Positions 6,191 through 61,788 of a stretch of 64,000 nucleotides of DNA are shown one piece after another. Both the position numbers and the translations under genes were made by a program. The notes below the pieces were generated by a model. The model ran no database searches. It was not told the origin of the DNA and was given only the letters and a program-made list of their open reading frames with translations. Position 1 is the stretch's first letter; the number at the start of each line of letters is the position of its first letter. Source of the stretch: Thermoleophilia bacterium. Lineage in GTDB: Bacteria; Actinomycetota; Thermoleophilia; RBG-16-64-13. The DNA lies in NCBI GenBank assembly GCA_040768135.1, contig JAXGNF010000003.1:11191-75190 (forward strand). Reading direction: 5' to 3'.

Positions 6191-6232
6191 ACGCGCCCCT
6201 CTCTCCCCAGGAACGGAGACATCGCGCCGCTG

Positions 6233-42316: not shown

Positions 42317-43003
42317 TCAGCGGCCGCCTCGGCCTTCTTTTTGTTCCCCCAGCGAAGCGATGAGCGTCCGATCGAGCTCTACTATCGAGTCCAGCACCAC
42401 GTCCGCCGAAGCAAGCACTTCCGCCGAGGGTGGGAAGGCGGCGTTGGGGATGGCGACGACCGCCAGCCCGGCCGAATGAGCCGCCTGGATCCCACTGGTG
42501 GAATCCTCTACGGCGACCGCCCGCTCCGGCTCAGTCGCCAGACGGGCACAGGCCTCAAGGTAGACGTGGGGCTCGGGCTTGCCCGCCGACACTTCGTCAG
42601 ACGACACCAACGCATCAAAGCACGCCTGCAACCCAGCCAGTTCTAAGACGTATTCAATGATTTCCAGCGGTGAGGATGAAGCCACTCCTAACCTATAATA
42701 ACGGGCCAGACCAATGACCACGTCCACGGCTTTTGGAATCAGCGGCAGATGCTGAGCATATCGCCTACGCAGTCCACTTATGATGCCGGCATAGATCTCC
42801 TGATTAGACAGATCGACCCCGTTATTCTCTCGCATGGAAGCCGCCCATTGCATGGAATTGGCCCCCATCACCAGCGGCTGATCTCTTTCTGTGTCCCAAT
42901 ACCCTCCGTGGCAAGTGGCGAACTCGTAACGCACGGTGTTCCACACATTTTCGGTGTCGATGATGACTCCATCGAGATCAAAAACAATCGAATCGATGCT
43001 CAC
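42317..43003 (-). CDS. HAD-IA family hydrolase (beta-phosphoglucomutase-like phosphatase)
   Basis: IVFDLDGVIIDTE is HAD motif I (DxDGV), with downstream K and DD motifs. Confidence 0.75.
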   Translation of the reverse strand: MSIDSIVFDLDGVIIDTENVWNTVRYEFATCHGGYWDTERDQPLVMGANSMQWAASMRENNGVDLSNQEIYAGIISGLRRRYAQHLPLIPKAVDVVIGLARYYRLGVASSSPLEIIEYVLELAGLQACFDALVSSDEVSAGKPEPHVYLEACARLATEPERAVAVEDSTSGIQAAHSAGLAVVAIPNAAFPPSAEVLASADVVLDSIVELDRTLIASLGEQKEGRGGR

Positions 43004-45702
43004 GGCAGGGTGACCTGCTTGGCGCCGAGCCCCGCATAATCTGAAGGGTTGCAGGTCAGCACAATTATCTGAAGTCCCCGCTCCGCACCGAGGTCGAGCA
43101 TCCGCTGCAGCGTCTGTACGCGTTCGGGATCAGAGTATGCGAAGGCATCGTCAAACACCACGGGGAGCGAGCCGTCGTGACCGGCAGCCAGCAACTCCGC
43201 AATCGCGAGTCGAACGGCAGCCGCGACCTGCTCGCGGGTCCCGCCGCTCAACCGGGCAAACGAAGTGGTGCCTCCGTCGTCGGAACGAGCAAGTTCGATG
43301 CCCTTGAAGCGTCGGTTCTCGAAGGACACCACGGCACGGGCATCCGCTCCGAACAGACAGCGTAGATACGCGCTTATCTTGTCGGCCAACGGCTGTGAGA
43401 AGCGATCTGCCAAGGCCCTCTGCTCGGCGACGAAGAGGTCATCGACAAGGACAATGGCGCGGGCCTTTCGCTCCACCAACCGCAGATTGGTCTCGGCCGC
43501 CTGCAACCGGGCGTCGGCCTCAGCGAGTAGCGCCTGGGGATCCTCAGCGCCACTCAAGCGGAGGAGGGCCTGGTTCGCGGCACGCCGGTTAGACGCATCC
43601 AGCTTCTGCTCAGCGATCCGTTCCAGGGCACGGGCCAACCGTTCGTGATCCGCCGCCAATACATCGGGCTGCAAAGCTTCCAACGATGCCCGAGTCGTCC
43701 CCAGTTCGTCTGCTAGTCGCTTCGCATCCTCCCGGGCTTCTCTCAGCGTCGCTGCACGCACTTCGTCCGCCCCGTGATTCCCGATCAGCAGTTCCAACTG
43801 GTCGGTGCACTTGGTCAACTGCTGCTTGTCGGCCTCTATCAGGATCCCGGCCGCGGTGAGCTCCTTCTCCTTTTCGACGACCAGCACCCGGAGCGCTTCC
43901 AGCGCCGCTTTGGCCGCCCCCTCATCGGATTCGACAACCTGCAGGCCCTCCTGTTCGTGCCGGAGCCATTCCCGCGCATCGGCAATCGTCTGCGGCGATG
44001 CCGCACCGTCGATATGTTGCGCGCGTCTCTGGACATCGGCCACAGCCGCAGCAAGCTCCTCTGCTGCCACCGCGCGTTCGTCGTCCAGCCCCGAAGACCC
44101 AGCGGGCCACTCCGCCAGACGATCCACCAGTGAGCGCTCTTTGCTCAGAAGGCCGGCTCTGACTTTCGCCATCTCGAGGACCTCGGCCACCGATCCCAGA
44201 CCGTACCCGTCCAGCGTGCGCCTCAACTTATCACCCAGTGTACGAACTCTCTCCCGTGCCTGGACTAAGCCGTCACCGCCACCTGGATAGATGCGAAGCA
44301 GTGTCGTTCCCACCACCACCTCGGTAGGATCGGAGACTGTATGGCGCCCACCACCGGCGAGGCTAACCGGCCCTACCTGAACCGCGGCATCGCTACGGAC
44401 GACCTCCACCTCGGTAGCCATGGCCTTCAGAGCCGATTCGGCTTGAGCTGCCTTACCCTCGAGGTCCCGTAAACCGTCAAGAGCCTGTTCATCGAGCGGC
44501 ACCAACCCCGCCAGCTCCGTGCGGAGGCCGGCTAGTTCCTCTTCAAGCCGTCGTACGCGCTCTATGTACTCGTCGAGCTTGTCACAACGAGCCCGCTTCT
44601 CAAAGAGAGCCACATATGCAGCGGCCAATTCCTTCCTGTTCCAGGCTTCTCGAATGACCGCCATTGCCCCTTCGTATGCGTGTTCTGCCTCTGCCTTCTC
44701 TTTCTTCACGGCCAGCAATTCGGCTTCGAGGAGTGCTCGGGCTTCTTCTCGTGGTCTGAGCGACTTCTTCAGGTCGCCGGCCAAGTCCCGTAGCTCAGAT
44801 ATGCTTGTTTCGACGGCTTCTAGATCTGCCAGTCTCTGGGCGGCAATATCGGAGTCGGCTGCTTGTCGCTCCTCACGACGCCGCAACTCATCGACTTCGG
44901 TCATTCCAATCTCGACAGACCGACGCTGCTCAGTCAGGCCTTCCGCCTCACGGGTGAGCCGCTCGATCGTATTCGAAGCCTCTTCGAATCCCAGGGCCGC
45001 TTGACGTAACCTGTCGACCCGGTCGGCAGCCGTCGCACGCTCCGCCGCAGCCTCGGCGTATTCGGTCTGCGCCTTCTCGAGATCGGAGCCTTTCTTGGGC
45101 CTGCCGGTGCTCACGAAAATCAGGCTCCGGTTGCGCGAGAAACGAGCGGCCACCCGCCCGTCCGACTCGGACTGCATGGCCACGGCTCCCCCAGAGTCCT
45201 GCAGTCTTTGCAGGAGGTCTTCCTGCTGGGCGCCCACATATCCACACGGGTCGTTCAGGCTGTTGCCCTGCCATACCCAGAGATGCGACCACTGTTCGAA
45301 GACCCGCTCGTCGGCTCCCCTGCCGCCCTCGATGGTAGGCACCCCAAGTAATTCAGCAATCCGCTGCTGAGCGTCTTCGCCGAGCCAAGTGGACCCGCCC
45401 ACTTGAGTCAGACGAGTAGTGCCGTTCTGACCACTGAAACGCTTCGCGACCTCGTACTGCGCGCCCCGGGCCTCGAACCTCACCTCCACCTCGGGATGTC
45501 CCGCAAAACGAGTAGACCGCATGCGATGATGAGCCTCCCCCGTCACAGTGGCCTTGAGAAACAGCCCTCTGTGGACGGCCTCGATGAGAGTGCTCTTGCC
45601 GCTCTCGTTGGGACCGCCCACCAATGTACGCGCCGGGTCGAACTCCACCGTGACGTCCTGGTGGATGCGATAGCTGATAACCCGAGCAGCGAGCAGCCTC
45701 AT
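43000..45702 (-). CDS. SbcC/Rad50-like AAA ATPase (DNA double-strand break repair)
   Basis: N-terminal Walker A LVGGPNESGKSTLIEA, a long coiled-coil (E/A/R/L-rich) middle, and a C-terminal signature/Walker B (LSGGTREQ..., LPVVFDDAF). Overlaps the SbcD-like gene. Confidence 0.8.
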   Translation of the reverse strand: MRLLAARVISYRIHQDVTVEFDPARTLVGGPNESGKSTLIEAVHRGLFLKATVTGEAHHRMRSTRFAGHPEVEVRFEARGAQYEVAKRFSGQNGTTRLTQVGGSTWLGEDAQQRIAELLGVPTIEGGRGADERVFEQWSHLWVWQGNSLNDPCGYVGAQQEDLLQRLQDSGGAVAMQSESDGRVAARFSRNRSLIFVSTGRPKKGSDLEKAQTEYAEAAAERATAADRVDRLRQAALGFEEASNTIERLTREAEGLTEQRRSVEIGMTEVDELRRREERQAADSDIAAQRLADLEAVETSISELRDLAGDLKKSLRPREEARALLEAELLAVKKEKAEAEHAYEGAMAVIREAWNRKELAAAYVALFEKRARCDKLDEYIERVRRLEEELAGLRTELAGLVPLDEQALDGLRDLEGKAAQAESALKAMATEVEVVRSDAAVQVGPVSLAGGGRHTVSDPTEVVVGTTLLRIYPGGGDGLVQARERVRTLGDKLRRTLDGYGLGSVAEVLEMAKVRAGLLSKERSLVDRLAEWPAGSSGLDDERAVAAEELAAAVADVQRRAQHIDGAASPQTIADAREWLRHEQEGLQVVESDEGAAKAALEALRVLVVEKEKELTAAGILIEADKQQLTKCTDQLELLIGNHGADEVRAATLREAREDAKRLADELGTTRASLEALQPDVLAADHERLARALERIAEQKLDASNRRAANQALLRLSGAEDPQALLAEADARLQAAETNLRLVERKARAIVLVDDLFVAEQRALADRFSQPLADKISAYLRCLFGADARAVVSFENRRFKGIELARSDDGGTTSFARLSGGTREQVAAAVRLAIAELLAAGHDGSLPVVFDDAFAYSDPERVQTLQRMLDLGAERGLQIIVLTCNPSDYAGLGAKQVTLP

Positions 45703-46874
45703 GACACCCTCTCCTGCTGCCAGGCCGCATATAGTTCGCGGAGGGCAACCCGGGCAGTAGCCGCCTCCTCACCGTCACCACCGGCTTGAGTCATGAGTTG
45801 GGCCGCGACCCGGGCGATGAGCGGGTCTGCCCCACTCGCGGTGAGGGCGTGTATCTCGTTTTCGGTCGGGGAGACCATAGTGAGATCTTCCAGCCTCAAC
45901 CGCAACAGCCGGGCTTCAAGAGACTCCACGATTCCGTCCACGCGAGCGGATGCTTCGAATCCCACCGCTCCGGAAAGCGTTAGGCGTAACAGGTCTTCGT
46001 TCGCCCGCTGTCCCAACAATGTTACTAGGCGGTCCTCGAGCCCGGAGATGGCCGAGTCGTCGGCCAAGTCGAACGACAACACCCGCCACACCAACCTGCC
46101 TGTGTGGACCTTCTCCACCCGGGGGATGCGCCCCCGGTCGACGTCGACCACAAGAACATTGCCGGCATCATAGCCCTCGCCCTTGGGGAAGCGATCGGCC
46201 TCAGGGGTGCCCGAGTACCAGGCCTTTGCGCTCACCTGCCCCGTCCCATGCCAGTCACCCAAGGCCACATAATCGATCTCTGCCTCGGGCAGCCTGGTGA
46301 CATCGATCAGGTTGGAGAGGGCGTCGCTTTTGTCTTCGTCGTCGATCTCGCCCACGAAACTCTGGGTGCTGCCGTGGGCGAGGACGATCCGCGGCCGGTC
46401 CGTGGGCAGACCGGCATATGTCGCGGGTGAGCGCAACCATTCCGTCGGATCACCCACAACTGAGCGCCGCGCCAAAGGACAGGGGAGGATGACCGCCCCG
46501 TCCTCCACGAACGGCTCAGTCTCAGTGAGTACGGTGAGGTTAGGCGCGAGCGCCTCTCGCTCCCTCAAGAAGAACTCCTGATCCCAAATGCTCCCCGGAC
46601 CCGCATGATCGTGGTTACCCGGGATGGCATAAACCGGCACCTCCATCTGCCCGATGGCGCTGCAGGCGGCCGCCACCGTCGCCTTGTCGACGCTGGGGGA
46701 GTCAAACAGATCGCCCGCCACAACCACAAACGCCGCCCCGTTCTCGTGAACGACGGCCCCAACCCGTTTGATCACGTCCACCCGGGCCTGTCGAACCAAT
46801 GCGCGTTTGTGAGGGTCGTCGATACGGGCGAAAGGCGCCCCGATCTGCCAATCTGACGTGTGGATGAACTTCAT
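45699..46874 (-). CDS. SbcD/Mre11-like metallophosphoesterase nuclease
   Basis: MKFIHTSDWQIG...GDLFD...GNHDH are calcineurin-like phosphoesterase motifs. The start is taken at the MKFIHTSD Met. Confidence 0.8.
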   Translation of the reverse strand: MKFIHTSDWQIGAPFARIDDPHKRALVRQARVDVIKRVGAVVHENGAAFVVVAGDLFDSPSVDKATVAAACSAIGQMEVPVYAIPGNHDHAGPGSIWDQEFFLREREALAPNLTVLTETEPFVEDGAVILPCPLARRSVVGDPTEWLRSPATYAGLPTDRPRIVLAHGSTQSFVGEIDDEDKSDALSNLIDVTRLPEAEIDYVALGDWHGTGQVSAKAWYSGTPEADRFPKGEGYDAGNVLVVDVDRGRIPRVEKVHTGRLVWRVLSFDLADDSAISGLEDRLVTLLGQRANEDLLRLTLSGAVGFEASARVDGIVESLEARLLRLRLEDLTMVSPTENEIHALTASGADPLIARVAAQLMTQAGGDGEEAATARVALRELYAAWQQERVS

Positions 46875-46960
46875 GAGCCTCCCCCCGGATGTTTCGCCGG
46901 TCCATACTACTATAGCCAGGCCGACGGACACGTACGCACATCCCGAGGAGCCGGTGTTAG

Positions 46961-48466
<1,506 letters not shown>

Positions 48467-48473
48467 GCGCACG

Positions 48474-48543
48474 CGCGTTGCCCGGTGTGGTGACGCCCTC
48501 TTGCCGGCGTGACCCCCAGTCGGCTTTGATGGCGAGATCGCCC
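48474..48543 (+). repeat. copy A of a ~67-bp direct repeat (TTGCCCGG..GGTGACGCCC..TTGCCGGCGTGACCCC..GGCGAGATCGCC)
   Basis: Aligns with 52295..52360 in the same orientation at roughly 80-85% identity. It contains the imperfect hairpin GTGACGCC-N8-GGCGTGAC. Confidence 0.5.
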
Positions 48544-48639
48544 GCTTGAGGATTGAGACTGCCTCCGCCCACCCGCGTGGCCACCGATTGATTTCTACCA
48601 ACCAGGTCTTCCCTCCCGTTGGCGGCGGCGTGTAGCATG

Positions 48640-48675
48640 AGCCCCAGAAATGCGAAAACCGCCCGAGGGCGGCTT
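48640..48675 (-). terminator. possible intrinsic terminator on the minus strand (GCCGCCCUCGGGCGGC hairpin followed by UUUUCGCAUUU)
   Basis: The plus strand reads AAAACCGCCCGAGGGCGGCTTCGC. The reverse complement gives a GC hairpin followed by a U-run. No obvious minus-strand gene lies immediately upstream, so its role is unclear. Confidence 0.3.
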
Positions 48676-48733
48676 CGCGCCCTAGGCGTATAGCCTAGGG
48701 GTAGCGACAACATCATAAGGCCGGAGGGCCCGG

Positions 48734-49385
48734 ATGTCAACGGATCGGACGCGCGTCTACGTGGACGGCTTCAACCTCTACTACGGGGCGTTTCGCGATG
48801 GGACCTTCGGAGCATACAAGTGGCTCAACCTGGTCGGTTTCTGTCAGGATATCCCCCCCCAAGGGACATCGTATCGACATGGTGAGATATTTCACGGCAC
48901 GGGTGAAGCCCAGAGGGACCGATCCCGGAGCCCCCGCGCGTCAGGCGACCTACATCCAAGCGTTGCGCACGCTCCCAGAGATCAGCATCCACATGGGCAC
49001 TTTCTCCACTCACCCCAAGATCAGGCCGGTTACGGATCAGGCCGCCCATTGCCAGCCTGCCGTAGAAGTAATCATCACCGAGGAAAAGGGTTCGGACGTG
49101 AACCTGGCAACGTACCTCCTGCTGGATGCTTTCGACGACACGTTGGATACAGCCGTCGTCATCTCGGACGACTCTGACCTGCTCGAACCGATCAAGGTCG
49201 TCAAAGAACGATTCGACAGGCGAATCGTGGTAATCCGGATCCGAACCAACCGAGGTAGCGTGTTCAAGAATGTGGCAGACGCCGTCTATGACGCCAACCG
49301 GTCGCGCTACTACTCGCAAAGCCAGCTCCCGGCGACGCTCACGTCGCCCTCGGGGAAGGTGATCAACAGGCCCTCCGGATGGTAG
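48734..49385 (+). pseudogene. NYN-domain (LabA/PIN-like RNase) gene disrupted by a frameshift in a C8 homopolymer tract
   Basis: Frame A (48734..) gives MSTDRTRVYVDGFNLYYGA...FCQDIPP. Frame B continues KGHRIDMVRYFTARVKP...EEKGSDVNLATYLLLDAFDDTLDTAVVISDDSDL, the NYN motif. The frames switch at CCCCCCCC, 48853..48860. Removing one C restores a single ~216-aa ORF. Confidence 0.6.
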
Positions 49386-49416
49386 ACCGGCATAGTGACG
49401 TCTTCTTTGCCAACGA

Positions 49417-49986
49417 TCACGCGGGGCTCGAGCGCCGCCTCGGCATCTGACTCCAAGTTCGGCCGTCCAGTACCCTACCTGCGGTCTTCCTGCGCGTACC
49501 ACCCCACTGCTTGAAGAAGAACGGCACCGACTCTTCAGTACAGCTATCTCTGATCGAAGAAATCCACTCCCGCTTCATTGGCCGCGCTCCTGGACCGGAC
49601 TCTTCGCCGACAATCACCCAATCGACCCCCGTCAGGTCAAAATCGGGCAGAGGTCCAAGAAGGGGTTCGATAGAAAGAAACCTCACGATAGCCGGGACCA
49701 TCCGCAGTCGCCCCACCCGCTTGAGGCGCTGATTGTCCTCGACAGTGACACCCATCCGGACGTTATCGGGCCACGGGAGCGAGGACGCCAATTCCCCCAG
49801 CCGATCGGCGCGCTTGGTAAGAAGTTGGTACGTATGCCTGGGAGTGCGCTCCATCACTTGAAATATGCGCGCGATGAAGTCCACCGGCACTTCCTCGTGA
49901 AACAGGTCGCCCATGGAGTTGACGAAGACCATGCGTGGTTTCTTCCACGAGAAAGGGACCTCGAGCATGTGCTCATGAGTACGCAC
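49417..49986 (-). pseudogene. phage Gp37/Gp68 family (DUF5131) gene, N-terminally truncated remnant
   Basis: MVFVNSMGDLFHEEVP...TKRADRL...VGEESGPGARP matches the conserved C-terminal two-thirds of Gp37/Gp68 proteins. The Cys-rich N-terminal segment is absent. There is a TAA 11 codons upstream of the first possible GTG start and no upstream continuation. Confidence 0.5.
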
Positions 49987-50172
49987 GGCGAAACCATCAC
50001 GGTAGTTCGGTTGGTCTTAGTGACACAACAACTTCTTCTGAGGTTGCACGCTTAGACAGTCATTGCCTCCTTTCCGCGCTCTGTATTCTCCTTCCAGCTC
50101 ATCCACTACCGGTTAACATGTCGCTCGGCAAAGCATCGACAAGCTACACCAACTCAGCCGCCTCGCCACTGT

Positions 50173-51075
50173 TCATCTGGAAACCCTTTCCTGATAGCCG
50201 ATGACCAACCCATGAGCGATCTTCAGAACCTCCTCCACGGGCAGGTTGGAGAGCACCTCCACCCGCGTGCCGCCCTGCGCCCACACGATCAAGCTGGCGT
50301 CCTCATAAGTAACTGCGTATCGTGGATTTGTAGCCGCAGTGCCCCCCTGGTCCACCACCAGTTGCTCAGGGGGCGATACCGATCCGGAGAGCCCTGTAAT
50401 TAGCACAGCGTCATTGCCGCTCACCTCGGCTGCCTGGCCTTCCGGCAGAGGGGCACCGCTATCCGGAGAGATCCTGACAAGCAGGAACCAGTCACCGCTG
50501 CGATAAAGCACCTGCTCGGTCAGACTGCCTTGCGTTCCGGGCCTGTTGCCGACGCCGTCGCCGCCCCCTGACGGAACGTCAGCCGTTCCCACCTGGTAGA
50601 CCGGAACCGGATCGAACCCCTCTGGCAGATAGCCTGCCTCCGTGGGGACGAGTCGATAGAAATTCAGGTTCAGGATCCCGGCTAGGAAGTCCCCAGCAGC
50701 GGACCGCGCCGAAGGTACCGCAAGCACGACAGCAACCGCAAGCAAGACTATCGCTCCAGCTACCGCTGCGACCCTCCACTTGCACGATAGTGTGTGTCCG
50801 CCGACAGCTTTCGAAGGCGCAGCTCCGGTTGACATCGCGCCTTCATTTCCAATGGCTGCCTGAAGACGAGCCCAGGCGTTCTTTGACGGAGCCGCCTCCG
50901 AGACCAACATTCGCATACCCTTTGCAGCCCGGACACGAGTCCTCCCGAGAGCTCCGAGATCCTTCTCACATGACTTGCACCGGGCCAGGTGCGCATCGAT
51001 GGCTCTGCGTTCTGATGGCGCGACTTCTCCGTCTAAATAGGCAACCAACGATAACCGCACTTCACGGCATTTCAT
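50173..51075 (-). CDS. anti-sigma factor (zf-HC2 N-terminal domain, single TM, extracytoplasmic domain)
   Basis: HLARCKSC is the H..xCxxC zinc-finger anti-sigma motif. The TM is AAVAGAIVLLAVAVVLAV. Its start overlaps the stop of the upstream ECF sigma. Confidence 0.7.
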   Translation of the reverse strand: MKCREVRLSLVAYLDGEVAPSERRAIDAHLARCKSCEKDLGALGRTRVRAAKGMRMLVSEAAPSKNAWARLQAAIGNEGAMSTGAAPSKAVGGHTLSCKWRVAAVAGAIVLLAVAVVLAVPSARSAAGDFLAGILNLNFYRLVPTEAGYLPEGFDPVPVYQVGTADVPSGGGDGVGNRPGTQGSLTEQVLYRSGDWFLLVRISPDSGAPLPEGQAAEVSGNDAVLITGLSGSVSPPEQLVVDQGGTAATNPRYAVTYEDASLIVWAQGGTRVEVLSNLPVEEVLKIAHGLVIGYQERVSR

Positions 51076-51641
51076 CCTTGCGCCTCCACTACGGACTGGC
51101 CCTGACCCCGCGGGTCGGGCTCCAGTTGATCCTTCATCGCATGCATGGCCAGGTTCAGCCGGGACTTCACCGTCCCCAAAGGGACGTCAAGCATTTCGGC
51201 GATCTCAGCGTAGGAAAGCCCCCAGTAGTGCCGGAGTACCAGCACCACCCGTAGCTTGTCGCTAAGCCCACCCAGGGCATGGCGGATCCAATCACGTTCC
51301 GCGAGACATTCATCCGCGGCGCAAACAGATTCTCGGATCTGGCCCTCGACGTCCTCCAGTCGGTCTGCTACATGACGGCCTCTTCGGCAATTGAGGCAGC
51401 GATTGACCGTGACCTGATGAACCCATGTGCTGAAGGAGCCACGATTCGGATCGTAGCTGTCGAGAGAGCGGTGCACCTGAAGGAAGACATCCTGCAGGAT
51501 GTCTTCGGCTTCAACTGCCGTACCTACCATGAGGTAGGCGGTGCGGTACACGAGGTTCTTGTACTGCTCGAACAACTGACCGAAGGCCTCTTCATCTCCG
51601 ACTTGGCACCGGCGGACAAGAATCGTGTCGGCTCCCTGCAT
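51072..51641 (-). CDS. ECF-family RNA polymerase sigma-70 factor
   Basis: Region 2 (LVYRTAYLMVG...AEDILQDVF) and region 4 (LVLRHYWGLSYAEIAEMLDVPLGTVKSR) helix-turn-helix. Confidence 0.85.
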   Translation of the reverse strand: MQGADTILVRRCQVGDEEAFGQLFEQYKNLVYRTAYLMVGTAVEAEDILQDVFLQVHRSLDSYDPNRGSFSTWVHQVTVNRCLNCRRGRHVADRLEDVEGQIRESVCAADECLAERDWIRHALGGLSDKLRVVLVLRHYWGLSYAEIAEMLDVPLGTVKSRLNLAMHAMKDQLEPDPRGQGQSVVEAQG

Positions 51642-52135
51642 GTCGACTCCTGCGTAGTGAATGCATCAATAATGGTACACAGCCCAGGCTCAGGAAGTTC
51701 ACTTGACGTGTGGGCCTCTGAATTCAGTCTATTCCAGACCAAGGTCTACCAAGCCCGCTCTGTGCGCTGTGAGTCGGCCTGGTCGGCTGCACAGCCGTCG
51801 TTAGTGCCGGACGTCTCTTCTCCCCTTTCTGCTCACCTGCGTGGACTCTGCACCCGTCGCGACGAAGTCGGAAATGACGTCCGCTTACACGTCTCTACCG
51901 TGGCGGAGTGGCGGCAGTTCGGCGGGGGTGAACTTGTAGGCCTTGTCCATGGGAGACTACTTCTGCCTCGGTGTGGAGTCGATGCTCTCTCCGCTGAAGA
52001 TGTGCAGGAGGCTGAAGCGGGAGATCGCACGGTTCCTGACCTGCCTGCGCATCTCCAAGGCTCGTGGCGCACCGCCTCCGAGCGTGATGGCAGTCGATGC
52101 AAATGCCACCCAATTGTCTGCGAAGAAGCTCCCGC

Positions 52136-52306
52136 CAGCACGCAACTCCGGTAGGCAACATCGTTCAGATAGACGTCGACAGCCTGCTCCCCCAGTTGAG
52201 CGAATGCCTCTTCCGCGCTGAGGCCCAGGGCCTCAGCCCCCCGCTCCACGGCCGCCCGCTCTTCGGGCGTATAGGGTCCAAGAACGCTCTTTCCCTTGCC
52301 CGGCAT
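52136..52306 (-). CDS. possible small ORF (RHH/antitoxin-like?), apparently frame-disrupted downstream; very uncertain
   Basis: The first ~57 codons (MPGKGKSVLGPYTPEERAAVERGAEALGLSAEEAFAQLGEQAVDVYLNDVAYRS) are protein-like. The frame then degenerates into S/R/P-rich sequence while a second frame becomes protein-like, suggesting a decayed gene. Confidence 0.2.
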
Positions 52307-52360
52307 GGTGACGCCCCCCTTGCCGGCGTGACCCCAACCCGCGCTGACGGCGAGATCGCC
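52295..52360 (+). repeat. copy B of the ~67-bp direct repeat
   Basis: See copy A. It lies in the gene-poor stretch between the ECF sigma gene and the VapC-like fragment. Confidence 0.5.
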
Positions 52361-52513
52361 GGTCTGCGCACCCCAGGATCCGCGGCCAAGGCGACCTGCG
52401 TGACGCCCCGCGGGGTGAAGAGCTCTTAGCGCAGCACGCCTGGGTGGGTGAAGGTGCGATTCCCACGGATCGTGAGCGCGTCTCTCGCCTGCAGTGGTCG
52501 CACGGGCGCAGGA

Positions 52514-52828
52514 TCAACCCCGCACCCAGTTCTCGATCTTCAGCTCCCGGTACCCGGCGAAATCAGCCTCGTTGTTGGCGACCAGTGCCGCGTCGAGGCC
52601 GACGGCGTGAGCGGCGCTGAGCCTGTCGAGCGCATCCCTGGCCTTCTCTCGCGTCGCCGCCCGGATGGGTCCGTAGACCCCAGCCGCTCCGGTGTCGAAG
52701 GGGACGGCGGGGATGTCCTCCACCAGGCCGTCCGGCGCCCGACGATTCTGTTCCCGGCTCGGGCCTGAGCGCGCGACCCCGTACTCAGGTTCAGCCAAGG
52801 TGATGGCCGACATCACCAGCTGCGCCAC
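52514..52828 (-). pseudogene. VapC-like PIN-domain toxin fragment lacking a canonical start and a cognate antitoxin gene
   Basis: The open frame after the TAG reads SLLYILHGFVVDAKS...GVYGPIRAATREKARDALDRLSAAHAVGLDAALVANNEADFAGY, the PIN C-terminal pattern (IAA.A...LVT.N..DF). Only about 8 codons precede the first conserved Asp and none is ATG/GTG/TTG. No vapB fits upstream. Confidence 0.45.
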
Positions 52829-53008
52829 GCCGCCGGTACCGCTTCGAGACTTCGCGTCAACAACGAATCCGTGGAGAATGTACAGCAGTGACTAGACAGT
52901 AATGTGAAAAGAAGGAGAATATATAGCAGCTCTTGTGGCATTACAGCTCAGATACCTTATCATGCTAAAGAGATACCGTTTGCTATGAAGAAGAAAGGAG
53001 AAAGAAGG

Positions 53009-54283
53009 GTGCGTAAGCGGATTGGGATTCTGGGTACTCTAGATACTAAAGGAGAAGAAATAGGATATCTCAAGCAGAGGATCGAGGATCAAGGACATCA
53101 GCCTATTGTGATTGATGTCGGCGTGATCGGTGAGGTCCCGTTTGACCCTGATGTCGACCGTAGCAGCGTTGCGCTAGCCAGTGGCGCGACCATTGAAGAG
53201 ATAGCCAGTTATGGAGACGAAGCCAAGGCCGAACTAGAAATGGCCAAAGGTGCCGCTAAGATCGTCAAAGACATGAACGACAGTGACGAACTGGATGGTC
53301 TTCTGGCTTTGGGTGGGACCATGGGGACCGATCTAGCGCTGGATGTCATGGCGGCACTACCCCTGGGCATCCCGAAGCTAATAATCTCCAGTGTCGCATT
53401 CTCTCCCTTGATACCGCCAGATAGGATCCCTGCCGACCTCATGATGGTGCTTTGGTCAGGGGGGCTATGGGGGGTAAACAGCATCTCGCGCAGTATTCTT
53501 GACACAGCTGCCGGTGCAATTGTGGGGGCAGCCGAAGTCTACAAGCGCAAGCCCGCGCAAGACCGGCCCGTGGTAGGTGTGACCGCAGCGGGCTCATCGG
53601 CCCTGAAATATCTGGATTGGATCAAACCTGCTCTGGAGGAGCGCGGTTACGAGGTGGCGGTCTTCCACTCAGTCGGCATGGGCGGACGAGCTTTCGAGAA
53701 TCTGATTGCCAAGAACGCTTTTGTCGCGGTCCTAGACCTCTGCATGATGGAAGTCCTTGGTCATATCCTGGATTGCCCATGTTCTTCTGGCGAGGACCGG
53801 ATGGAGGCCGCAGGCAGGGCCGGTATTCCTCAGATCATCGGCCCCGGACTGATCAGTTGCGTTGCCATTTCGCCTTGGCGACCGATCCCACCCCGTTTTG
53901 AAGGCCGTCATGTCCGCTGGCATAACCGACTGATCGGAGACCCGCCCTGCACGAGCGAAGAACAAGCCATGCTGGGAGAAGTCGTTGCAAGAAAACTGAA
54001 TGCAGCCGTGGGCCCGACCGCCATCGTCATTCCCTTGCGGGGCTCAGTGGAATGGGATAGGCCCTCCGAACCGCTATATAACCCTGAAGGCTTGGTCCCA
54101 TTCAGCAGTGCCTTGAAAAGGCTTATCAAGCCCGAGGTCAAGGTCGTGGAACTCGACGCACACATCAACGACAAGGAGTTCGCCGACGCGGTGCTCTCGC
54201 TATTCGATGCTATGGTGTTTGGCCAAGGGGAGGAGCAGAAACGCCCCGTAGCAAGTCCAGCGAAAGATGCCGTCGGGCAGTAG
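53009..54283 (+). CDS. UPF0261 family (Tm-1-like) ATP-binding protein, paralog 1
   Basis: GTG at 53009-53011, 6 nt after AAAGGAGAAAGAAGG. V/MRKRIGILGTLDTKGEEIGYL parallels the paralog MRKCIAIVATMDTKGDQIAYL. The longer ORF from 52904 is AT-rich leader. Confidence 0.7.
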   Translation: MRKRIGILGTLDTKGEEIGYLKQRIEDQGHQPIVIDVGVIGEVPFDPDVDRSSVALASGATIEEIASYGDEAKAELEMAKGAAKIVKDMNDSDELDGLLALGGTMGTDLALDVMAALPLGIPKLIISSVAFSPLIPPDRIPADLMMVLWSGGLWGVNSISRSILDTAAGAIVGAAEVYKRKPAQDRPVVGVTAAGSSALKYLDWIKPALEERGYEVAVFHSVGMGGRAFENLIAKNAFVAVLDLCMMEVLGHILDCPCSSGEDRMEAAGRAGIPQIIGPGLISCVAISPWRPIPPRFEGRHVRWHNRLIGDPPCTSEEQAMLGEVVARKLNAAVGPTAIVIPLRGSVEWDRPSEPLYNPEGLVPFSSALKRLIKPEVKVVELDAHINDKEFADAVLSLFDAMVFGQGEEQKRPVASPAKDAVGQ

Positions 54284-54339
54284 ACCTCTTCTGACTGATC
54301 TGGTGCGAACGTTGTGATGTGAGTTAGGAGAATAGGGTT

Positions 54340-55581
54340 ATGCGAAAGTGCATCGCGATAGTCGCCACCATGGACACCAAAGGTGACCAGATCGCTTACT
54401 TGAAGGAGCAGATTGAGGAGAAAGGGATATCAACCTGCACCATCGATATCGGAGTCGCTGCGGACGGCCCATTCCGGACTGATTATGATCGTCACAAGGT
54501 GGCGTCAGCCGGGGGTACGAGTATTGCAGACATCCTTTCCATGAACAACCGCCGCGCCGGACTGGAGAAGATGGGAGAGGGCGCGGCGAGTATCGTTCGT
54601 GACCTGAACGTGCGCGGCGAACTAGTGGGCGTTGTCTCAGCCGGCGGCTCCCAGGGCACAGCTATCGCCCTGCTACTCATGCAGACCGTACCCCTTGGAA
54701 TCCCCAAATTGTTGCTCACAACCATAGCCTACAGCCCGGTCATCGTCCCAGATATGGTGGGGGGTTCGGACCTCATCATGATGCCGTGGGTAGCGGGCCT
54801 CTGGGGCCTCAATCCCCTGTCGAAGCAATGCCTGGACACTGCGGCCTGCGCCATCGCTGCTGCCGCTGAGAACTACCGCGGCAGACCACTGGATAAGAGC
54901 AGGAAGATCGTAGGCATCAGTTCCCTGGGGGGTTCAGTCCAACGCTATGCCGACACGTTGAAACCGGCTCTCGAGGCACGGGGGCATGAGGTCGGCGTCT
55001 TCCACGCCCTGGGAATGCCTGGCCGTATCTTCGAGCGAGCAATCTCCGATGGTCTGATCAGTGCAAGCCTGGACCTCTCCGTCGGCAGCGAATTGATCAA
55101 CCAGCTCAAGGGCGGTGTCTATGCCGGAGGAGAACATCGCTTGGAAGCGGCCGGCCGCATGGGCATCCCTCAGATCGTGTCTCCGGGGGGCATCGAGGTC
55201 TTCATGTGGGGCAAGGATCGACCACTGCCTTCTCGTTACAAGGACCGACCCATGGTGGCGTGGCACAGCTCGCTCCACGTTTCCATCAGCACTACCCCCG
55301 AGGAAATGGCCGCGGTGGGCAAACTGATGGCACACAAGGTCAACATAGCCCGGGGACCGGTCACCGTAATACTACCCTTGCAAGGCATCGGCTGGGCACC
55401 AGGCACGCCTTTTGGCGAAGGCAGGAGAGCCGCAGTCCTGCAGGCCGGTATGGCTGCCTTCCGGCGCAGTATCAGACGACATCTGGGCGCCGGCGTCCGT
55501 TACATAGAAATCGACGTGGATTTCAATCACCCCGAGTACATCGATACCGTTCTCGCGGTGTTCGACGAAATGACTGCGTAG
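54340..55581 (+). CDS. UPF0261 family (Tm-1-like) ATP-binding protein, paralog 2
   Basis: 413 aa, collinear similarity to the preceding gene (GIPKL, SGGLWG/VAGLWG, HSVGMGGRAFE/HALGMPGRIFE). Confidence 0.8.
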   Translation: MRKCIAIVATMDTKGDQIAYLKEQIEEKGISTCTIDIGVAADGPFRTDYDRHKVASAGGTSIADILSMNNRRAGLEKMGEGAASIVRDLNVRGELVGVVSAGGSQGTAIALLLMQTVPLGIPKLLLTTIAYSPVIVPDMVGGSDLIMMPWVAGLWGLNPLSKQCLDTAACAIAAAAENYRGRPLDKSRKIVGISSLGGSVQRYADTLKPALEARGHEVGVFHALGMPGRIFERAISDGLISASLDLSVGSELINQLKGGVYAGGEHRLEAAGRMGIPQIVSPGGIEVFMWGKDRPLPSRYKDRPMVAWHSSLHVSISTTPEEMAAVGKLMAHKVNIARGPVTVILPLQGIGWAPGTPFGEGRRAAVLQAGMAAFRRSIRRHLGAGVRYIEIDVDFNHPEYIDTVLAVFDEMTA

Positions 55582-55680
55582 CCTGCGTAGCAGGCCGTCA
55601 CACCACCCATAACGTCGGCCTTCAGTCGGTCGCCCGCGGACGTCCTTTCTGTCCGCCCAGGAGCTACCACCGTCAGAGCC

Positions 55681-56910
55681 TTACACCACTGTCAGGTCCA
55701 ATGATAACCGACTGGTCGCCGCGGCTTCATTCTCTGTCACGATCAGGGTATTCCCCAGCATGATCCCCCTGTACCCCATCTCTCCGTCCCCGGGGCTGAT
55801 GTGAGGGTGATTGGCATAGATCATCCGCGGCTGGAGTTCCGTGTACGTCAACTTGTAGTGGTCCTCCGCCATCTCACTGACCTGCAACGTCCAGACCTTC
55901 CCCGACATGCCGCGGGCCGAAGCACAGCTCGCCGCCTTCTTCTCGATCTCGAGGACGGTGTTCCCGGGCCGCAGTTCGGCTTTGGCCAGCTCATAGATGT
56001 CCCGATGAAGCCTCATGGTGTCTCTGAAGGCAGACGGGAGCGCGTCTTCCGCCATGCCAACGCAGATTGGATGGCAGACCTGCACATACGATCCGTGGCA
56101 GCCGGGACACAGCTCATTGAAGATAAGATCCCCCCTCTTCACCGCGCGCTGTGGATCGCCCACGGACCGATCTCCATGGATCCTTTCCTCCCACGAGCCC
56201 ACGGACACAATGGCAAAGTCCGCCGCGGTGGCGCCACCAACCAGCATACCTATCCTCGCGGCCCTCTGAAGATCACCCAAAGTGACCCCCGGCCGGGTGG
56301 CCGCTTCGATAATAGCTTCAATGCCCTGGTCAGCCGCTTCCGCGGCTGTGTACGTATATGCGATTTCCTCCGGACTCTTGATCCTTCTCACTTCCAAGAG
56401 AAGATCGCCGGCCGGAATGAACGTTGCCTGAGGCAAGTCACGTTGAATATCCACGTAGACTCCGGCAGGCATCACTCTCATGTCGGCGATTCCGATCGTA
56501 GCTCTCTGTAGCCCCAAGCGCTCGACTGCTCGGACTATACCCCAGGCATAGTCCTTGATCCTCTGGCCTTCACCCTTTCCCTTCTTGAAGACCGGATCCA
56601 GGACCGTTGGCACAGGAAGCCTATCGTCTACCCACACCTCACCGGTGCCGGTGGCAGGACTCTGCAGCTGAATAGGTTCCCCTTCCATCGGGAATATGAC
56701 GTAAGCGTAATCGCCCAATCCCACCATATCCTGACCGGCTACATACATATGAGAGGCTGAATAAGCCCAGTTCTTCGCCGAACACCCGACGACGACCAGG
56801 CAATCGATGTTCCGCAGTTGCATGACTTCCCTGATCTTGCGGTGCCTCCTCTCCCATTCCTCGGAGGAAAACCCCAGCTTCTGCCTGCCTACCGTCCCAG
56901 TAGCTTCCAT
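55681..56910 (-). CDS. M24-family metallopeptidase (Xaa-Pro aminopeptidase/creatinase-like)
   Basis: Creatinase-like N-domain plus a pita-bread C-domain with metal-ligand region (IFNELCPGCHG...). 409 aa. Confidence 0.75.
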   Translation of the reverse strand: MEATGTVGRQKLGFSSEEWERRHRKIREVMQLRNIDCLVVVGCSAKNWAYSASHMYVAGQDMVGLGDYAYVIFPMEGEPIQLQSPATGTGEVWVDDRLPVPTVLDPVFKKGKGEGQRIKDYAWGIVRAVERLGLQRATIGIADMRVMPAGVYVDIQRDLPQATFIPAGDLLLEVRRIKSPEEIAYTYTAAEAADQGIEAIIEAATRPGVTLGDLQRAARIGMLVGGATAADFAIVSVGSWEERIHGDRSVGDPQRAVKRGDLIFNELCPGCHGSYVQVCHPICVGMAEDALPSAFRDTMRLHRDIYELAKAELRPGNTVLEIEKKAASCASARGMSGKVWTLQVSEMAEDHYKLTYTELQPRMIYANHPHISPGDGEMGYRGIMLGNTLIVTENEAAATSRLSLDLTVV

Positions 56911-56966
56911 CGTCCGCAGCTCCCCTGTGCCATCGCTCGGCTCCGAACCTACCGATTCACGCTCGG

Positions 56967-57950
56967 CTAGTACTCGCCTGTTCTCAGATAAGTAACGTAG
57001 GCTTGGATACCTTCCCTAACCGATTTGGGGACAAAACCAACCTCTTCTTTGATCCGGTCCATCCTTAGCGATCGGTCCACCATGTTATGTGCTTTGATAT
57101 CTGAAGGTGGGCCGAGAGTTATCCGAGCTCCTGGAATGACATCCGTCACAGCGTCCGCAATCTCCTGCATAGTGGGGTTACTCCCTGACGATACGTTATA
57201 GATATGATGGCTCAATGGTCTGTCCGCCATGAGCAGCGCACTCGTAGCTTGGGCGCTGTCTTTCGCGTAGACGCAATGCGTCCGCCGGTTGGCCGGTATC
57301 CCGGACAGGTCCAGAGGCTCGTTGTTGAGCGCCGAGTGGATCATGTCGTTCACCACTGCGTGCGTGCATCCGATCCCAAAATTCGAGCCAAGCCTGACGC
57401 TTACATAGCTTATGCCGTAACCTTTGGCATATAAGAAGCCAATGAGATCCGCTGCGCGCTTGCAGTTGCCGTCTGGCGAGTACGCCACCGGCGGCAGGTA
57501 CGCGTCTTCTTCGAACACCTCCGGCTGACCGGGGAATCCTCGGTAATTGTCCACCGAGGCGATGAAGACCATGCGCCGCAAGTCCATCAGCTGCGTGGCC
57601 TCCAGACAGTTGACCGCTCCCACTACCTCCGTTTCGAACCGTCCCCGCACGTGCCATCCTCGCGGGTCCAGAACGGCCTTCAATCCTACGACATCCTTCC
57701 AGCCCCGGGCTTCCGCAGCCGCCTTCACGATGCTGTTGATCTTGTGCTCTTTGACTATCTCAAGGATCGATGACAGATCCAGTAGGTCGCCTAGTGCCTG
57801 GCGGACTTCCTTCCCCCAGTATTGCTCCAGTAGCGGGTGTGGTTCCATGGGGTGGCGTTGCATGAGCACCACACTCTCGCCACGTTCCGCCAAGCACCGG
57901 GCCATGTTTATCCCCAAGAAGCCGCTTCCTCCGGCAATGAGAATCATCAA
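56967..57950 (-). CDS. NAD-dependent epimerase/dehydratase (extended SDR family)
   Basis: MMILIAGGSGFLGINMARCL is the TGxxGxxG Rossmann motif. 327 aa. Confidence 0.8.
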   Translation of the reverse strand: MMILIAGGSGFLGINMARCLAERGESVVLMQRHPMEPHPLLEQYWGKEVRQALGDLLDLSSILEIVKEHKINSIVKAAAEARGWKDVVGLKAVLDPRGWHVRGRFETEVVGAVNCLEATQLMDLRRMVFIASVDNYRGFPGQPEVFEEDAYLPPVAYSPDGNCKRAADLIGFLYAKGYGISYVSVRLGSNFGIGCTHAVVNDMIHSALNNEPLDLSGIPANRRTHCVYAKDSAQATSALLMADRPLSHHIYNVSSGSNPTMQEIADAVTDVIPGARITLGPPSDIKAHNMVDRSLRMDRIKEEVGFVPKSVREGIQAYVTYLRTGEY

Positions 57951-58120
57951 CCATTCCTCCTAGGACCTGATCTTCCGGCCGTCGTGTGTCGCCACTATCC
58001 GCCGCTTTCTCGGTGCCCGAGTCTACCCTAGCAATCCGCGGCCCCCTCCACCCATCTGTTGACTCCCACGCGCCCACTGCTCCGATCGTGCGTCGGTACT
58101 CACATGCGGCCGGACGCTAT

Positions 58121-58828
58121 TCACCCGCCCAAGTAGCATCTCTTGACGGTCTCGTCTTCGGCAAGTGAGGCGGCGTTGCCACAGGCGCAGATCTCCCCCA
58201 CCTCGAGTACATAGGCCCTGTTGGCCAATCCCAACGCCATATTCGCATTCTGCTCCACCAGCAACACGCTGATGCCACTAGCACCGATCTCCTGAATCAT
58301 TCTGGCGACTTCCTCTACCATGATCGGAGCCAACCCCATGCTCGGTTCGTCCATCAGGATCAGCTTAGGACGCGACATCAGCGTTCGTGCCACCGCCAAC
58401 ATCTGTTGTTCTCCCCCGCTCAGACTGCTGGCCAACTGTTTCCGCCGGCTCTTGAGAATAGGGAAGTGCTCGTACATACGCTGCATGTCTTCGCTAATGC
58501 CGCCCCTGTCTTTGCGCAGGTAAGCCCCCATCCTCAGATTGTCGGACACGGACATCCCCGCGATCATGACCCTTCCTTCCGGCACATGACCCACACCCAG
58601 CTTCACGATTTCGTGGGCCGGCGATCCGTCTATCCGTCGTCCGTCGAAGTTGATACTCCCCGAAGCAAGAGTCTTCAACCCCGATATTGCCCGCAGCGTA
58701 GTTGTCTTACCAGCCCCATTTGGTCCTATCAGGGCGACGATCTCTCTCTCGTCAACGTGAAGCGAGATACCCTTGACAACCTCGGCTTTGGCGTAGCGTA
58801 TTCTCGCTTCTCGAACCTCTAATAACAC
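58121..58828 (-). CDS. livF: branched-chain amino acid ABC transporter ATP-binding protein LivF-type
   Basis: Walker A GPNGAGKTT, signature LSGGEQQMLAVAR, Walker B ILMDEPSMGL. Last gene of the liv operon. Confidence 0.85.
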   Translation of the reverse strand: MLLEVREARIRYAKAEVVKGISLHVDEREIVALIGPNGAGKTTTLRAISGLKTLASGSINFDGRRIDGSPAHEIVKLGVGHVPEGRVMIAGMSVSDNLRMGAYLRKDRGGISEDMQRMYEHFPILKSRRKQLASSLSGGEQQMLAVARTLMSRPKLILMDEPSMGLAPIMVEEVARMIQEIGASGISVLLVEQNANMALGLANRAYVLEVGEICACGNAASLAEDETVKRCYLGG

Positions 58829-59598
58829 CTAGTTGCGCCCTCCCCTCCAAGATATGCAGCAATCACCTCTTCATTGTTCATTATCTCCGTCGGCAGTCCC
58901 TCCGCAATCTTATGTCCATAATTCAGCACAACCACCCTATCACACAAACGTGTGATTACTCTCATATCATGTTCCACAATTACTACTGCAATACCCTTGG
59001 CTCGAATCTCCTGAATGCGTTCAACCATCATCATAGATTCTGCCATATTCATACCGGCAACCGGTTCATCAAGCAAAAGCACTCTAGGCTGAATCGCCAG
59101 AGCCATACAAACACCTAGTATTCGCTGGTGACCATGCGATAAATTACCGGCCAACTCGTCTCTTAGCGCAAATAGCCCCATCCAATCAACGATATCGAGA
59201 CTACGTTGTTTCAACGCCTGTTCTTCTCTCCGTGCGGCCGGGAGGCGAAGCACCCGCTTCAGCATGGGCACCTGGTAGCTCATGTGAAAACCGGCGAAGA
59301 CGTTTTCTAAGACAGACAGTTCCGTGAACAGATTTGACGTCTGGAAGGTTCGGCCGATCCCGAGGCTCGCTATCTTATGTGCGCTGGCCCTTGTGATATC
59401 AGAGGCTTCGAACCTGACCTCTCCCTTGCTGGGCGGAATGTGCCCACTGACAACATTGAAGAAGGTCGACTTACCAGACCCATTGGGCCCAATCAGCCCC
59501 AAGATCTCGGCTTCCATGACTCTGACGCAGACGTCAGTCAACGCCGCCAAGCCCCCGAAAGCCTTGCACAGATTGTGCGTCTCCAATAAGGCCGTCAC
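58819..59598 (-). CDS. livG: branched-chain amino acid ABC transporter ATP-binding protein LivG-type
   Basis: Walker A GPNGSGKST, signature LSHGHQRILGV, Walker B LLLDEPVAGM. Confidence 0.85.
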   Translation of the reverse strand: MTALLETHNLCKAFGGLAALTDVCVRVMEAEILGLIGPNGSGKSTFFNVVSGHIPPSKGEVRFEASDITRASAHKIASLGIGRTFQTSNLFTELSVLENVFAGFHMSYQVPMLKRVLRLPAARREEQALKQRSLDIVDWMGLFALRDELAGNLSHGHQRILGVCMALAIQPRVLLLDEPVAGMNMAESMMMVERIQEIRAKGIAVVIVEHDMRVITRLCDRVVVLNYGHKIAEGLPTEIMNNEEVIAAYLGGEGATRCY

Positions 59599-60707
59599 GA
59601 CTTCACCTTTGTGCGTCGCCCCATCATCGCCCTGCGAACCTTCGCAGTCGCCTCTGCGAAGCGGATGGCGAAGGGGTCACTCCTCCGAGACTTGAACAAG
59701 CCCAATATCCCTCCGGGGAAGAACAGAATCACCCCTATCAGAATCAGACCGACGAAGATCGGCTGTGCCGCCTCAACGCTTCGCATCATCTCCGGCAACA
59801 CCGTCATAAGGCTCGAACCAATCAGAGGTCCAAGTATCAATGAACCCAGACCGCCCACGATGGCGTACACCTGGATGTAAATGGTTTTGAACACATCAAA
59901 GGATCCAGGGACGATTGCGGTCACGTAGCTGGCATAAAGACTACCCATCAGACCGGCGGTCGCGCTTGCTATGGCGAAACCTAGAAGCCGGTACTTGTAA
60001 GTAGCCACCCCAAGCGTCTCCGCCAGATTGGATCTCAACCCCATCGCCCTCCACGCCCTGCCGGGCGACGAGTTCGAAAGGCCTGCATAAACAAGCATCA
60101 AGACGACTACGACAAGTAGCACCAGGTAGTAGTACGCCCGCTGGGTCCCGAAGCTAATGACCATACGGGTCAACGGGATTGTAATAGGCGACGGCCCGGG
60201 AATCTTCGTAATCCCTACATGCGCACCGAAGAATTTGAACGTCCCAAATACCTGAACCACTATCATGCCCAAGACGATACTCAGAATCACGAAGCAATTG
60301 CCTGGGACCCGGACGAGAAGCAGGCCTAGTACGAGCGCAGTAATGCCGGCTATGAGTGCAGCCAAGAATAGCGCCGCCCAAAACGGCGCCCCTCCTTTCG
60401 TGAGCAGAAGCGCCGACGCATATGCGCCAATACCCCAAAAGGCCGCGATAGACATGTTGATAAGTCCCATGCGAAACATGAAGACAAAAGTGACGGCTAG
60501 AACAGTATTAATACACACCATTATGAGCAAGTGCACATAATACTGATTCTCGACTACCAAAGGTATCACGATGGCCGCCACAACCAAGGCCACCCTGCCG
60601 ATGGTCTTCCAATACCGCGCGAGATTACTACGTGAAGGTAGTATCCAAGCCGGCCTTTCCAAAGACCCCTCCCGGTCTAAAGAAGATAACACCCGCAACG
60701 ACGACAT
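59595..60707 (-). CDS. livM: branched-chain amino acid ABC transporter permease LivM-type
   Basis: Multi-TM permease. Its 5' end overlaps livH by ~80 nt, so the true start is probably internal (around 60640). Confidence 0.7.
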   Translation of the reverse strand: MSSLRVLSSLDREGSLERPAWILPSRSNLARYWKTIGRVALVVAAIVIPLVVENQYYVHLLIMVCINTVLAVTFVFMFRMGLINMSIAAFWGIGAYASALLLTKGGAPFWAALFLAALIAGITALVLGLLLVRVPGNCFVILSIVLGMIVVQVFGTFKFFGAHVGITKIPGPSPITIPLTRMVISFGTQRAYYYLVLLVVVVLMLVYAGLSNSSPGRAWRAMGLRSNLAETLGVATYKYRLLGFAIASATAGLMGSLYASYVTAIVPGSFDVFKTIYIQVYAIVGGLGSLILGPLIGSSLMTVLPEMMRSVEAAQPIFVGLILIGVILFFPGGILGLFKSRRSDPFAIRFAEATAKVRRAMMGRRTKVKS

Positions 60708-61512: not shown

Positions 61513-61788
61513 TCAATCTCCTCCACGCAGAATGGCCTGCAGTCTCCATCCATTACAAGGCGCTCACCACTACCGTGCCCCAACTTGCGGTCTCTGTGGC
61601 CGGGACTAGGCCACGATGGCGACACGGAGGCGGCCTGCTTCATAGGCTGTCGTCGGCCCGTCGACCGCGCCGTGTCCTGTCGGCACAAGAGTCCTCGAGT
61701 CGGCAGTTGGCAGGCTTCACCGGACGGATGCCAGACGAAACCGGCCGAGGAGAGCGACACCTTGGTGCCGCCCTCCTCGGCCTGGAAA

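Follow-up and report, generated by a model that had tools for sequence, protein, structure and literature searches.

We analysed a 64,000-nucleotide (nt) stretch of contig JAXGNF010000003.1 from a Thermoleophilia bacterium (hereafter the window, with positions counted from its first letter), in which two copies of a direct repeat, A next to guaB and B further right, bracket a patch of partly decayed genes. Judged by homology, this repeat is the overlap of two truncated pseudogene pieces, both on the minus strand, which derive from the 3′ region of a type IIG restriction-modification (RM) gene; it was conspicuous because it represents the slowest-evolving part of that gene. In the explanation which we favour, at a probability of roughly 0.8, A and B are decayed fragments of the type IIG gene in a worn-out defence island, which would have been formed by insertion with duplication of the gene's tail, followed by decay.

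The direct repeat pair reported in the initial annotation is real, and both copies hold every sequence block quoted there, including the arms of an imperfect hairpin. When positions 48440-48640 were compared to the whole window by BLASTN, copies A and B aligned over 66 columns at 83.3% identity, with two indels of 1 nt each (E = 1.7e-12); the next-ranked matches, which are unrelated, were only found at E ≥ 0.4. The similarity of copy A begins at 48478 (TTGCCCGG), 4 nt later than initially given and 11 nt past the guaB stop codon, and ends at 48542/3, while copy B spans 52295/6 to 52360. It should be noted that the right boundary had been drawn too short, as A can be aligned up to 48584 and B, at the protein level, up to ~52399-52420. 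No third copy was found in the window at ≤ 3 mismatches, and a full-length homologous protein matched the window by tblastn only at fragments A and B. Same-species contigs add at least two further fragments (C and D) just beyond the window. Contigs and loci used for comparison are referred to below by L numbers.

Read on the minus strand, the repeat encodes GDLAVxAGWGHAGKGGVTMPGKG, the most conserved stretch (22 codons) of the C-terminal domain Type_ISP_C (PF18135). We scanned one genome per species with the hairpin core and 15 loci were returned. At seven of these, belonging to Thermoleophilia, Gaiellales and other Actinomycetota metagenome-assembled genomes (MAGs), the match covered the whole repeat; here the repeat, the left flank of B and the right flank of A form one continuous sequence, and the segment is in frame inside a long open reading frame (ORF), on the strand opposite to the orientation initially given. 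At the other eight loci (from Mesorhizobium, Streptomyces and others) only the 22 specified bases matched, and we regard these as chance or unrelated matches. The intact protein of L007 is 1156-1160 amino acids (aa) long, and the family, at ~1150 aa, is intact in related Thermoleophilia and Gaiellales MAGs. Intact proteins carry N6_Mtase, MmeI_Mtase/Eco57I and Type_ISP_C (E 1e-39), and PADLOC scores the intact protein as REase_MTase_IIG (E 4e-87).

Intact homologous genes were checked for the repeat, which was present in frame. Among 12 distinct intact in-frame versions we found 4, 1 and 17 variable columns at codon positions 1, 2 and 3 respectively (17 of the 22 variable columns are thus third positions), with the peptide GDLAVTAGWGHAGKGGVTMPG nearly invariant, which indicates that the repeat evolves as coding sequence. 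The hairpin arms simply encode G-H-A and G-V-T, and L039 has not kept them. Many of the top homologue matches were 230-250 aa long and on long contigs, which suggested a class of free-standing Type_ISP_C proteins of ~235 aa. This class was rejected: in three cases checked, L037, L038 and L039, the short proteins come from full-length genes which are frameshifted in error-prone assemblies and were called from a conserved internal Met, and L043 is not an orphan fragment but a full-length gene with one in-frame stop. A 396-aa homologue of the enzyme tail (P0063), on a 29.6-kb contig, was found to be fused to DUF559 (PF04480, Vsr-like endonuclease).

Within the window, no complete ORF combined the nuclease, methyltransferase and recognition domains of a functional type IIG gene, and tblastn found no parts of such a gene other than the residues listed for A and B in Table 1. 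Fragment A carries two frameshifting indels; its tblastn match (VATRVGGGSLNPQAGDLAIKADWG...) to the L015 protein was 50% over 54 aa (E 3e-9), and by BLASTN it matched the intact genes of L009, L012, L014 and L015 at 78-85%, exactly over 48478-48584. Fragment B was 74% identical to the L015 protein over 97 aa (E 3e-37, tblastn), after which homology is lost, and matched intact genes at 84-88% over 52131-52366 (BLASTN). The ATG at 52306 which opens a 157-aa ORF (51833-52306) is the enzyme's conserved internal Met (...GGVTMPGKG), and no Pfam match was found for this ORF.

Further fragments were found in the same-species contigs L033, L020 and L021, the last two of which are collinear with window positions 44327-64000 at 99.5-99.6% identity. 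Fragment C is located ~400 nt past the right end of the window (~64.4 kb), next to an SLH/DUF5010 gene. Fragment D, at ~68.6 kb, covers residues 998-1151, is open to the natural stop, and lies after the SLH gene and a DUF3800 gene and before an AbiEii toxin gene. Fragments A-D all have the same orientation and are spread over ~20 kb downstream of guaB, where they separate blocks of defence-type genes (NYN/HEC-09, the DUF5131 remnant, PIN, DUF3800 and AbiEii) and some ordinary genes. No intact type IIG gene was seen from guaB through D in the same-species contigs. At the right junction of copy C (L021 20100-20135, ~64.47 kb) we observed a perfect 7-bp inverted repeat, GATCGCC-GCGCC-GGCGATC, which the flank makes with the remnant's end at the point where homology to the enzyme gene ends; it was not seen at the L016 and L024 junctions.

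One contig, L001, differs from the other same-species assemblies at the repeat. Its GuaB protein is identical to that of the window and its DNA is 99.7% identical up to the repeat, through which L020 1849-4213 is joined to L020 20050-21242, with the intervening 15.9 kb absent. The single repeat copy at this junction is a hybrid, with its left arm from A and its right arm from C. Copies A and C match at 54 of 66 positions, including an exact 32-nt run which contains both derived indels, and their arms differ at 12 of 34 positions; by our own estimate the probability that 12 differences leave a 32-nt gap by chance is ~0.004 or less. On its sequence, a shared 32-nt core between diverged arms reads as the signature of crossover or conversion between A and C, which would make C, and not B, the partner of A. 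The identity of the core fits a crossover at an att-like core, and homologous recombination would give the same result. L001 probably represents one genotype of a mixed population, and otherwise a mis-join through the shared 32-nt run. The long form was found in four same-species assemblies and the short form only in L001, which is also the nearest to the window's strain; a deletion is thus the more parsimonious change.

We also found duplicated enzyme tails in other lineages. At four loci, cargo genes come after an enzyme gene which is intact or nearly so, and after the cargo comes a direct duplicate of part of that gene's tail: L036 (cargo Fic, GmrSD and DUF3800; duplicate of 549 nt, 94.7%), L038 (cargo NYN; 370 nt, 97%), L024 (cargo NYN, then AbiEi/nucleotidyltransferase; 106 nt, 91.5%) and L012/L028 (cargo GNAT-like and ASCH; 220 nt, 87%). 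In L016 a 49-nt duplication flanks a DUF5131-TcmP pair. The NYN gene directly adjoins the type IIG gene in L014, L024 and L038. Eight independent fragments have their 5′ ends between residues 959 and 1008 of 1160; in C, L016 and L024, whose flanks are unrelated, the end is no more than ~3 nt from the GDLA codons. L024 and L038 also have fragments which start further 3′, at residues 1033 and 1113-1119. This recurrent layout may serve as a lead only and is not established. L014 and L016 were considered as overlapping contigs of one locus, which was rejected as there was no identical overlap. At L016 3900-4120, the type IIG piece left of DUF5131 is fused to what appears to be a Fic-family C-terminal winged-helix end (…YVREFEQIGILESRKVGRKKLYLNTGLYDLLAG); this fusion is a further sign of mosaic gene debris in these islands.

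The explanation which we favour builds on the homology, the coding constraint, the four copies and the layout of gene, cargo and duplicated tail piece seen elsewhere, all of which were observed directly. New genes would have entered at the enzyme gene's 3′ tail or behind it, with a long target duplication of variable length; the same outcome would be expected from a Campbell-type crossover with a circle that carries a piece of the tail. The species of the window would later have lost the enzyme gene, and the cargo would have decayed in part, leaving stumps. These stumps would have remained substrates for recombination, as a crossover in the 32-nt core of A and C appears to have removed 15.9 kb in a near-identical strain.

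Several observations weigh against this explanation. Of seven intact genes for which 2.9 kb or more of downstream sequence is available, three (L031, L037 and L039) have no tail duplicate. Insertion with duplication is deduced from end states, and no empty site was found for any other lineage. The searches for fragments demanded the conserved core, which biases both the set of fragments found and the distribution of their 5′ ends, and the fragment ends vary between cases, so that part of the pattern could be plain decay. L001 comes from a short-read metagenome assembly made at k = 31, and in its sample the internal segment is present as well, on contig L042 (99.9% identical). The A-C interval itself holds ordinary-looking genes (a Liv-type ABC transporter, an epimerase, an M24 peptidase and two UPF0261 genes), which would be unusual for mobile cargo.

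A wider proposal, that the type IIG tail serves as a landing pad at which defence cassettes have been captured repeatedly, each with a 50-550-nt tail duplication and with no dedicated recombinase, seems doubtful to us. The cassettes would include NYN/HEC-09, DUF5131-TcmP, AbiE, Fic, GmrSD and DUF3800 and would form arrays of cassette plus stump which are able to loop out, and a preferred joint would be marked by the break which recurs, next to unrelated flanks, in three lineages at the GDLA codons (within ~3 nt).

The region had initially been read as the scar of an integrated element with att-like repeats. This stands in so far as the genes are decayed and horizontally acquired and the repeats are scars of insertion or rearrangement; A and B, however, are not the two ends of one element. 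That they should be attL and attR of a 3.8-kb element, which a recombinase inserted next to guaB and whose cargo then decayed, is very improbable, although two direct repeats in the same orientation do flank acquired-looking and partly decayed genes. Both copies are coding remnants whose enzyme homology runs past the repeat on opposite sides, and the longest exact match between them is just 17 nt. The same-species assemblies all keep the segment, and the sole variant junction, that of L001, joins A to C; no relative lacking just the A-B segment was found. No integrase, transposase or tRNA was found from guaB to D (Pfam on all ORFs at 48.5-52.9 kb; precomputed Pfam lists for L020, L021 and L033), and tRNA-linked integration was rejected, as the window has no tRNA or tmRNA genes. 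Between 44 and 53 kb, GC content stays at 0.58-0.64 and has no step at the interval edges, and thus there is no compositional island. There was no match to the repeat core among 2.9 million viral contigs, and a viral origin was rejected, as the 3.9-kb segment matched only parts of the DUF5131 gene (64-80%) when compared by BLAST to phages and plasmids. We consider it unlikely that instead the 15.9 kb from A to C are the inserted unit, with L001 as the ancestral empty site, into which a circle carrying a tail fragment recombined, through the shared core, at an isolated 66-nt remnant beside guaB, possibly with repeated cycles of entry and exit which kept the core identical. As would be the case for an integrated circle, enzyme homology is confined to the right side of A and to the left side of C; the core is identical between diverged arms, and L001 has exactly one hybrid copy. 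However, four assemblies have the long form and one the short, which is the form closest to the window's strain (identical GuaB), and this favours deletion; moreover, the segment has no recombinase and contains mostly housekeeping-like genes.

Fragments with varying boundaries, in a region full of other truncated genes and found by searches which demanded the core, could also be unrelated debris of several enzyme gene copies which decayed independently by random deletions, the core being merely what stays detectable. We think this quite unlikely, as all fragments have the same orientation, as the fragments of L036, L038, L024 and L012 are 87-97% identical to the tail of the gene just upstream, which points to local duplication, and as eight 5′ ends fall at residues 959-1008, three of these, with unrelated flanks, being ~3 nt or less from the GDLA codons. 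The other suggestion of the initial annotation, a conserved cis-regulatory or small-RNA element, and its variant, a leader whose ribosome-binding site would serve the ORF which begins at 52306, can be given next to no weight. There is an imperfect hairpin, and a Shine-Dalgarno-like AAGGGGGG is located 7 nt before the ATG at 52306; however, this ATG corresponds to a Met within the enzyme, homology of the downstream ORF ends after ~65 codons, and variation is concentrated at third codon positions, with the peptide invariant. Neither copy matched Rfam at E ≤ 1, with only an irrelevant sR32 at 45787 in the search of 44-57 kb, and folding z-scores of -0.07 to -1.7 (both copies, both strands) were not different from those of shuffles. 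A template/variable repeat pair of a diversity-generating retroelement was rejected, as there was no reverse transcriptase among the Pfam matches and the differences between A and B are indels and all base types and are not adenine-specific. An integron attC site was also rejected, as there is no IntI and the sequence is fully explained by coding.

The gene content noted initially, comprising a frameshifted NYN gene, a truncated Gp37/Gp68 gene, an ECF sigma/anti-sigma pair and a PIN fragment, was recovered from the ORFs and their Pfam matches (Table 1). The NYN gene is split into two overlapping frames by one extra C at 48853, and an intact 216-aa ORF is present in the same-species L020 and L021; the strains may truly differ here, or the assembly of the window may have a homopolymer error. 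The intact L020 version of NYN matches HEC-09 with E 8e-48. The ~95 nt 5′ of the NYN start together with the first codons (window 48639-48854) are 85% identical to positions 6147-6365 of the Gaiellales MAG locus L016, and in both the window and L016 a type IIG stump is located 100-200 nt further upstream. This stretch also holds a GC hairpin (AAAACCGCCCGAGGGCGGCTTCGCG, ~48655-48680), which could be a terminator or an operator. The DUF5131 remnant is without profile positions 1-54, the three-Cys N-terminus and the partner gene tcmP, and it has 73.6% DNA identity to the intact L016 gene, which adjoins TcmP.

Table 1 Features of the window around the repeat pair (residues are those of the 1160-aa L007 protein).
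Feature	Position	Strand	Remarks
guaB (IMP dehydrogenase)	46985..48466	+	493-aa ORF; Pfam IMPDH/CBS listed for identical protein; left border
Fragment A, type IIG 3′ remnant, 107 nt	48478..48584	-	~residues 994-1030
32-nt core ACGCCCTCTTGCCGGCGTGACCCCCAGTCGGC	48493..48524		Identical in A and C; includes both derived indels; putative crossover interval of L001
NYN-domain gene (PADLOC HEC-09)	48734..49385	+	Pfam NYN E 1.7e-7; frameshifted
DUF5131/Gp37-Gp68 gene, 5′-truncated (PADLOC PDC-M41B type)	49417..50013	-	Pfam profile 55-243 of 243
ECF sigma factor (51072-51641) and zf-HC2 anti-sigma factor (50173-51075)	50173..51641	-	Both intact
Fragment B, type IIG pseudogene fragment truncated at both ends	52109..52420	-	~residues 989-1091
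PIN (VapC-like) fragment	52514..52828	-	No N-terminal part; no antitoxin gene; Pfam PIN 30-115 of 120

Some neighbouring features are also worthy of note. Two tandem UPF0261 (Tm-1-like) paralogues, both intact, are located directly right of the PIN fragment (window 52904-55581); in L020 these genes are split into several ORFs, which indicates that L020 and L021 carry many indel errors. GC content is lower, at 0.51-0.56, at 58500-61500, over the permease genes of the Liv-type ABC transporter. Just upstream of guaB, on the minus strand (43000-46931), are genes for a 900-aa SMC/SbcC-like ATPase and a 410-aa metallophosphoesterase; the ATPase has weak PADLOC matches to LmuB (E 7e-14) and mad3, and the pair could be defence-related and not a housekeeping SbcCD.

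For annotation, direct repeats which bracket decayed genes should not be taken as att sites before coding homology has been checked on both strands. The locus adds an example of RM genes at sites of insertion, duplication and deletion, and suggests that stumps of such genes mark former insertion points of defence genes and can recombine together. It also shows possible strain-level structural variation, in the form of a 15.9-kb deletion which would remove an amino-acid ABC transporter, an epimerase, a peptidase and two UPF0261 genes. Finally, it gives a small lead on how the candidate defence genes HEC-09 and PDC-M41 come to adjoin RM genes; the landing-pad proposal, if true, would be one concrete mechanism by which defence genes become embedded beside RM systems.

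We compared these arrangements to known systems, and no description of tail duplications at type IIG genes was found in the literature. Insertion of e14 or phage 21 near the 3′ end of icd in E. coli keeps the gene intact and leaves a 5′-truncated duplicate of its tail downstream in direct orientation, in a reaction which is catalysed by an element-encoded integrase at a defined core. The layout of a displaced, direct tail duplicate is the same here, whereas no integrase was found in any of our loci and duplicate lengths cover a range of 49 to 549 nt. Partial copies are also known from phase-variable RM loci: type I hsdS and pglX shufflons contain inverted partial copies with a recombinase alongside, which provide alternative recognition domains. 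Our loci resemble these in having partial specificity/C-terminal copies near an RM gene, but the copies are direct, comprise only the conserved tail, are frameshifted and have no recombinase.

HEC-09 has been found embedded in Hma systems, without protection in assays, in a study whose host systems were Hma, BREX, DISARM and type I (Payne et al. 2024, bioRxiv 10.1101/2024.01.29.577857). The NYN protein here matches the HEC-09 candidate of that study, and DUF5131 and TcmP match the PADLOC candidates PDC-M41B and PDC-M41A. However, the host systems there do not include this type IIG family, and the study describes co-location and not the route of arrival; its text does not contain the words "truncated" or "remnant" or any word beginning with "recombin-".

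The closest comparison is to the class termed "insertion with long target duplication", which is defined by repeats of > 30 bp, an insert of < 20 kb, no mobility genes and a single copy at the site in a related genome; it has been linked to RM genes, and its repeats often extend across the end of a gene (Furuta, Abe & Kobayashi 2010, PMC2853133). The class was also described by Nobusato et al. 2000, as cited in that paper. The A and C repeats, the 15.9-kb insert without mobility genes and the single copy in L001 are of this kind, whether they reflect insertion or deletion and with L001 being a short-read contig, and so are the tail duplicates of L036, L038, L024, L012 and L016. In the published cases, unlike here, the RM genes are the inserted cargo: in our loci it is the 3′ tail of the RM gene which is duplicated, and the cargo consists of other defence-type genes. 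The A-C segment does not contain both an R and an M gene, but only the decayed RM fragment B; only stumps of the RM gene are left in the window, and no other lineage yielded an empty site. With these differences, the locus belongs to a known class of RM-linked rearrangement and is ordinary genomic debris.

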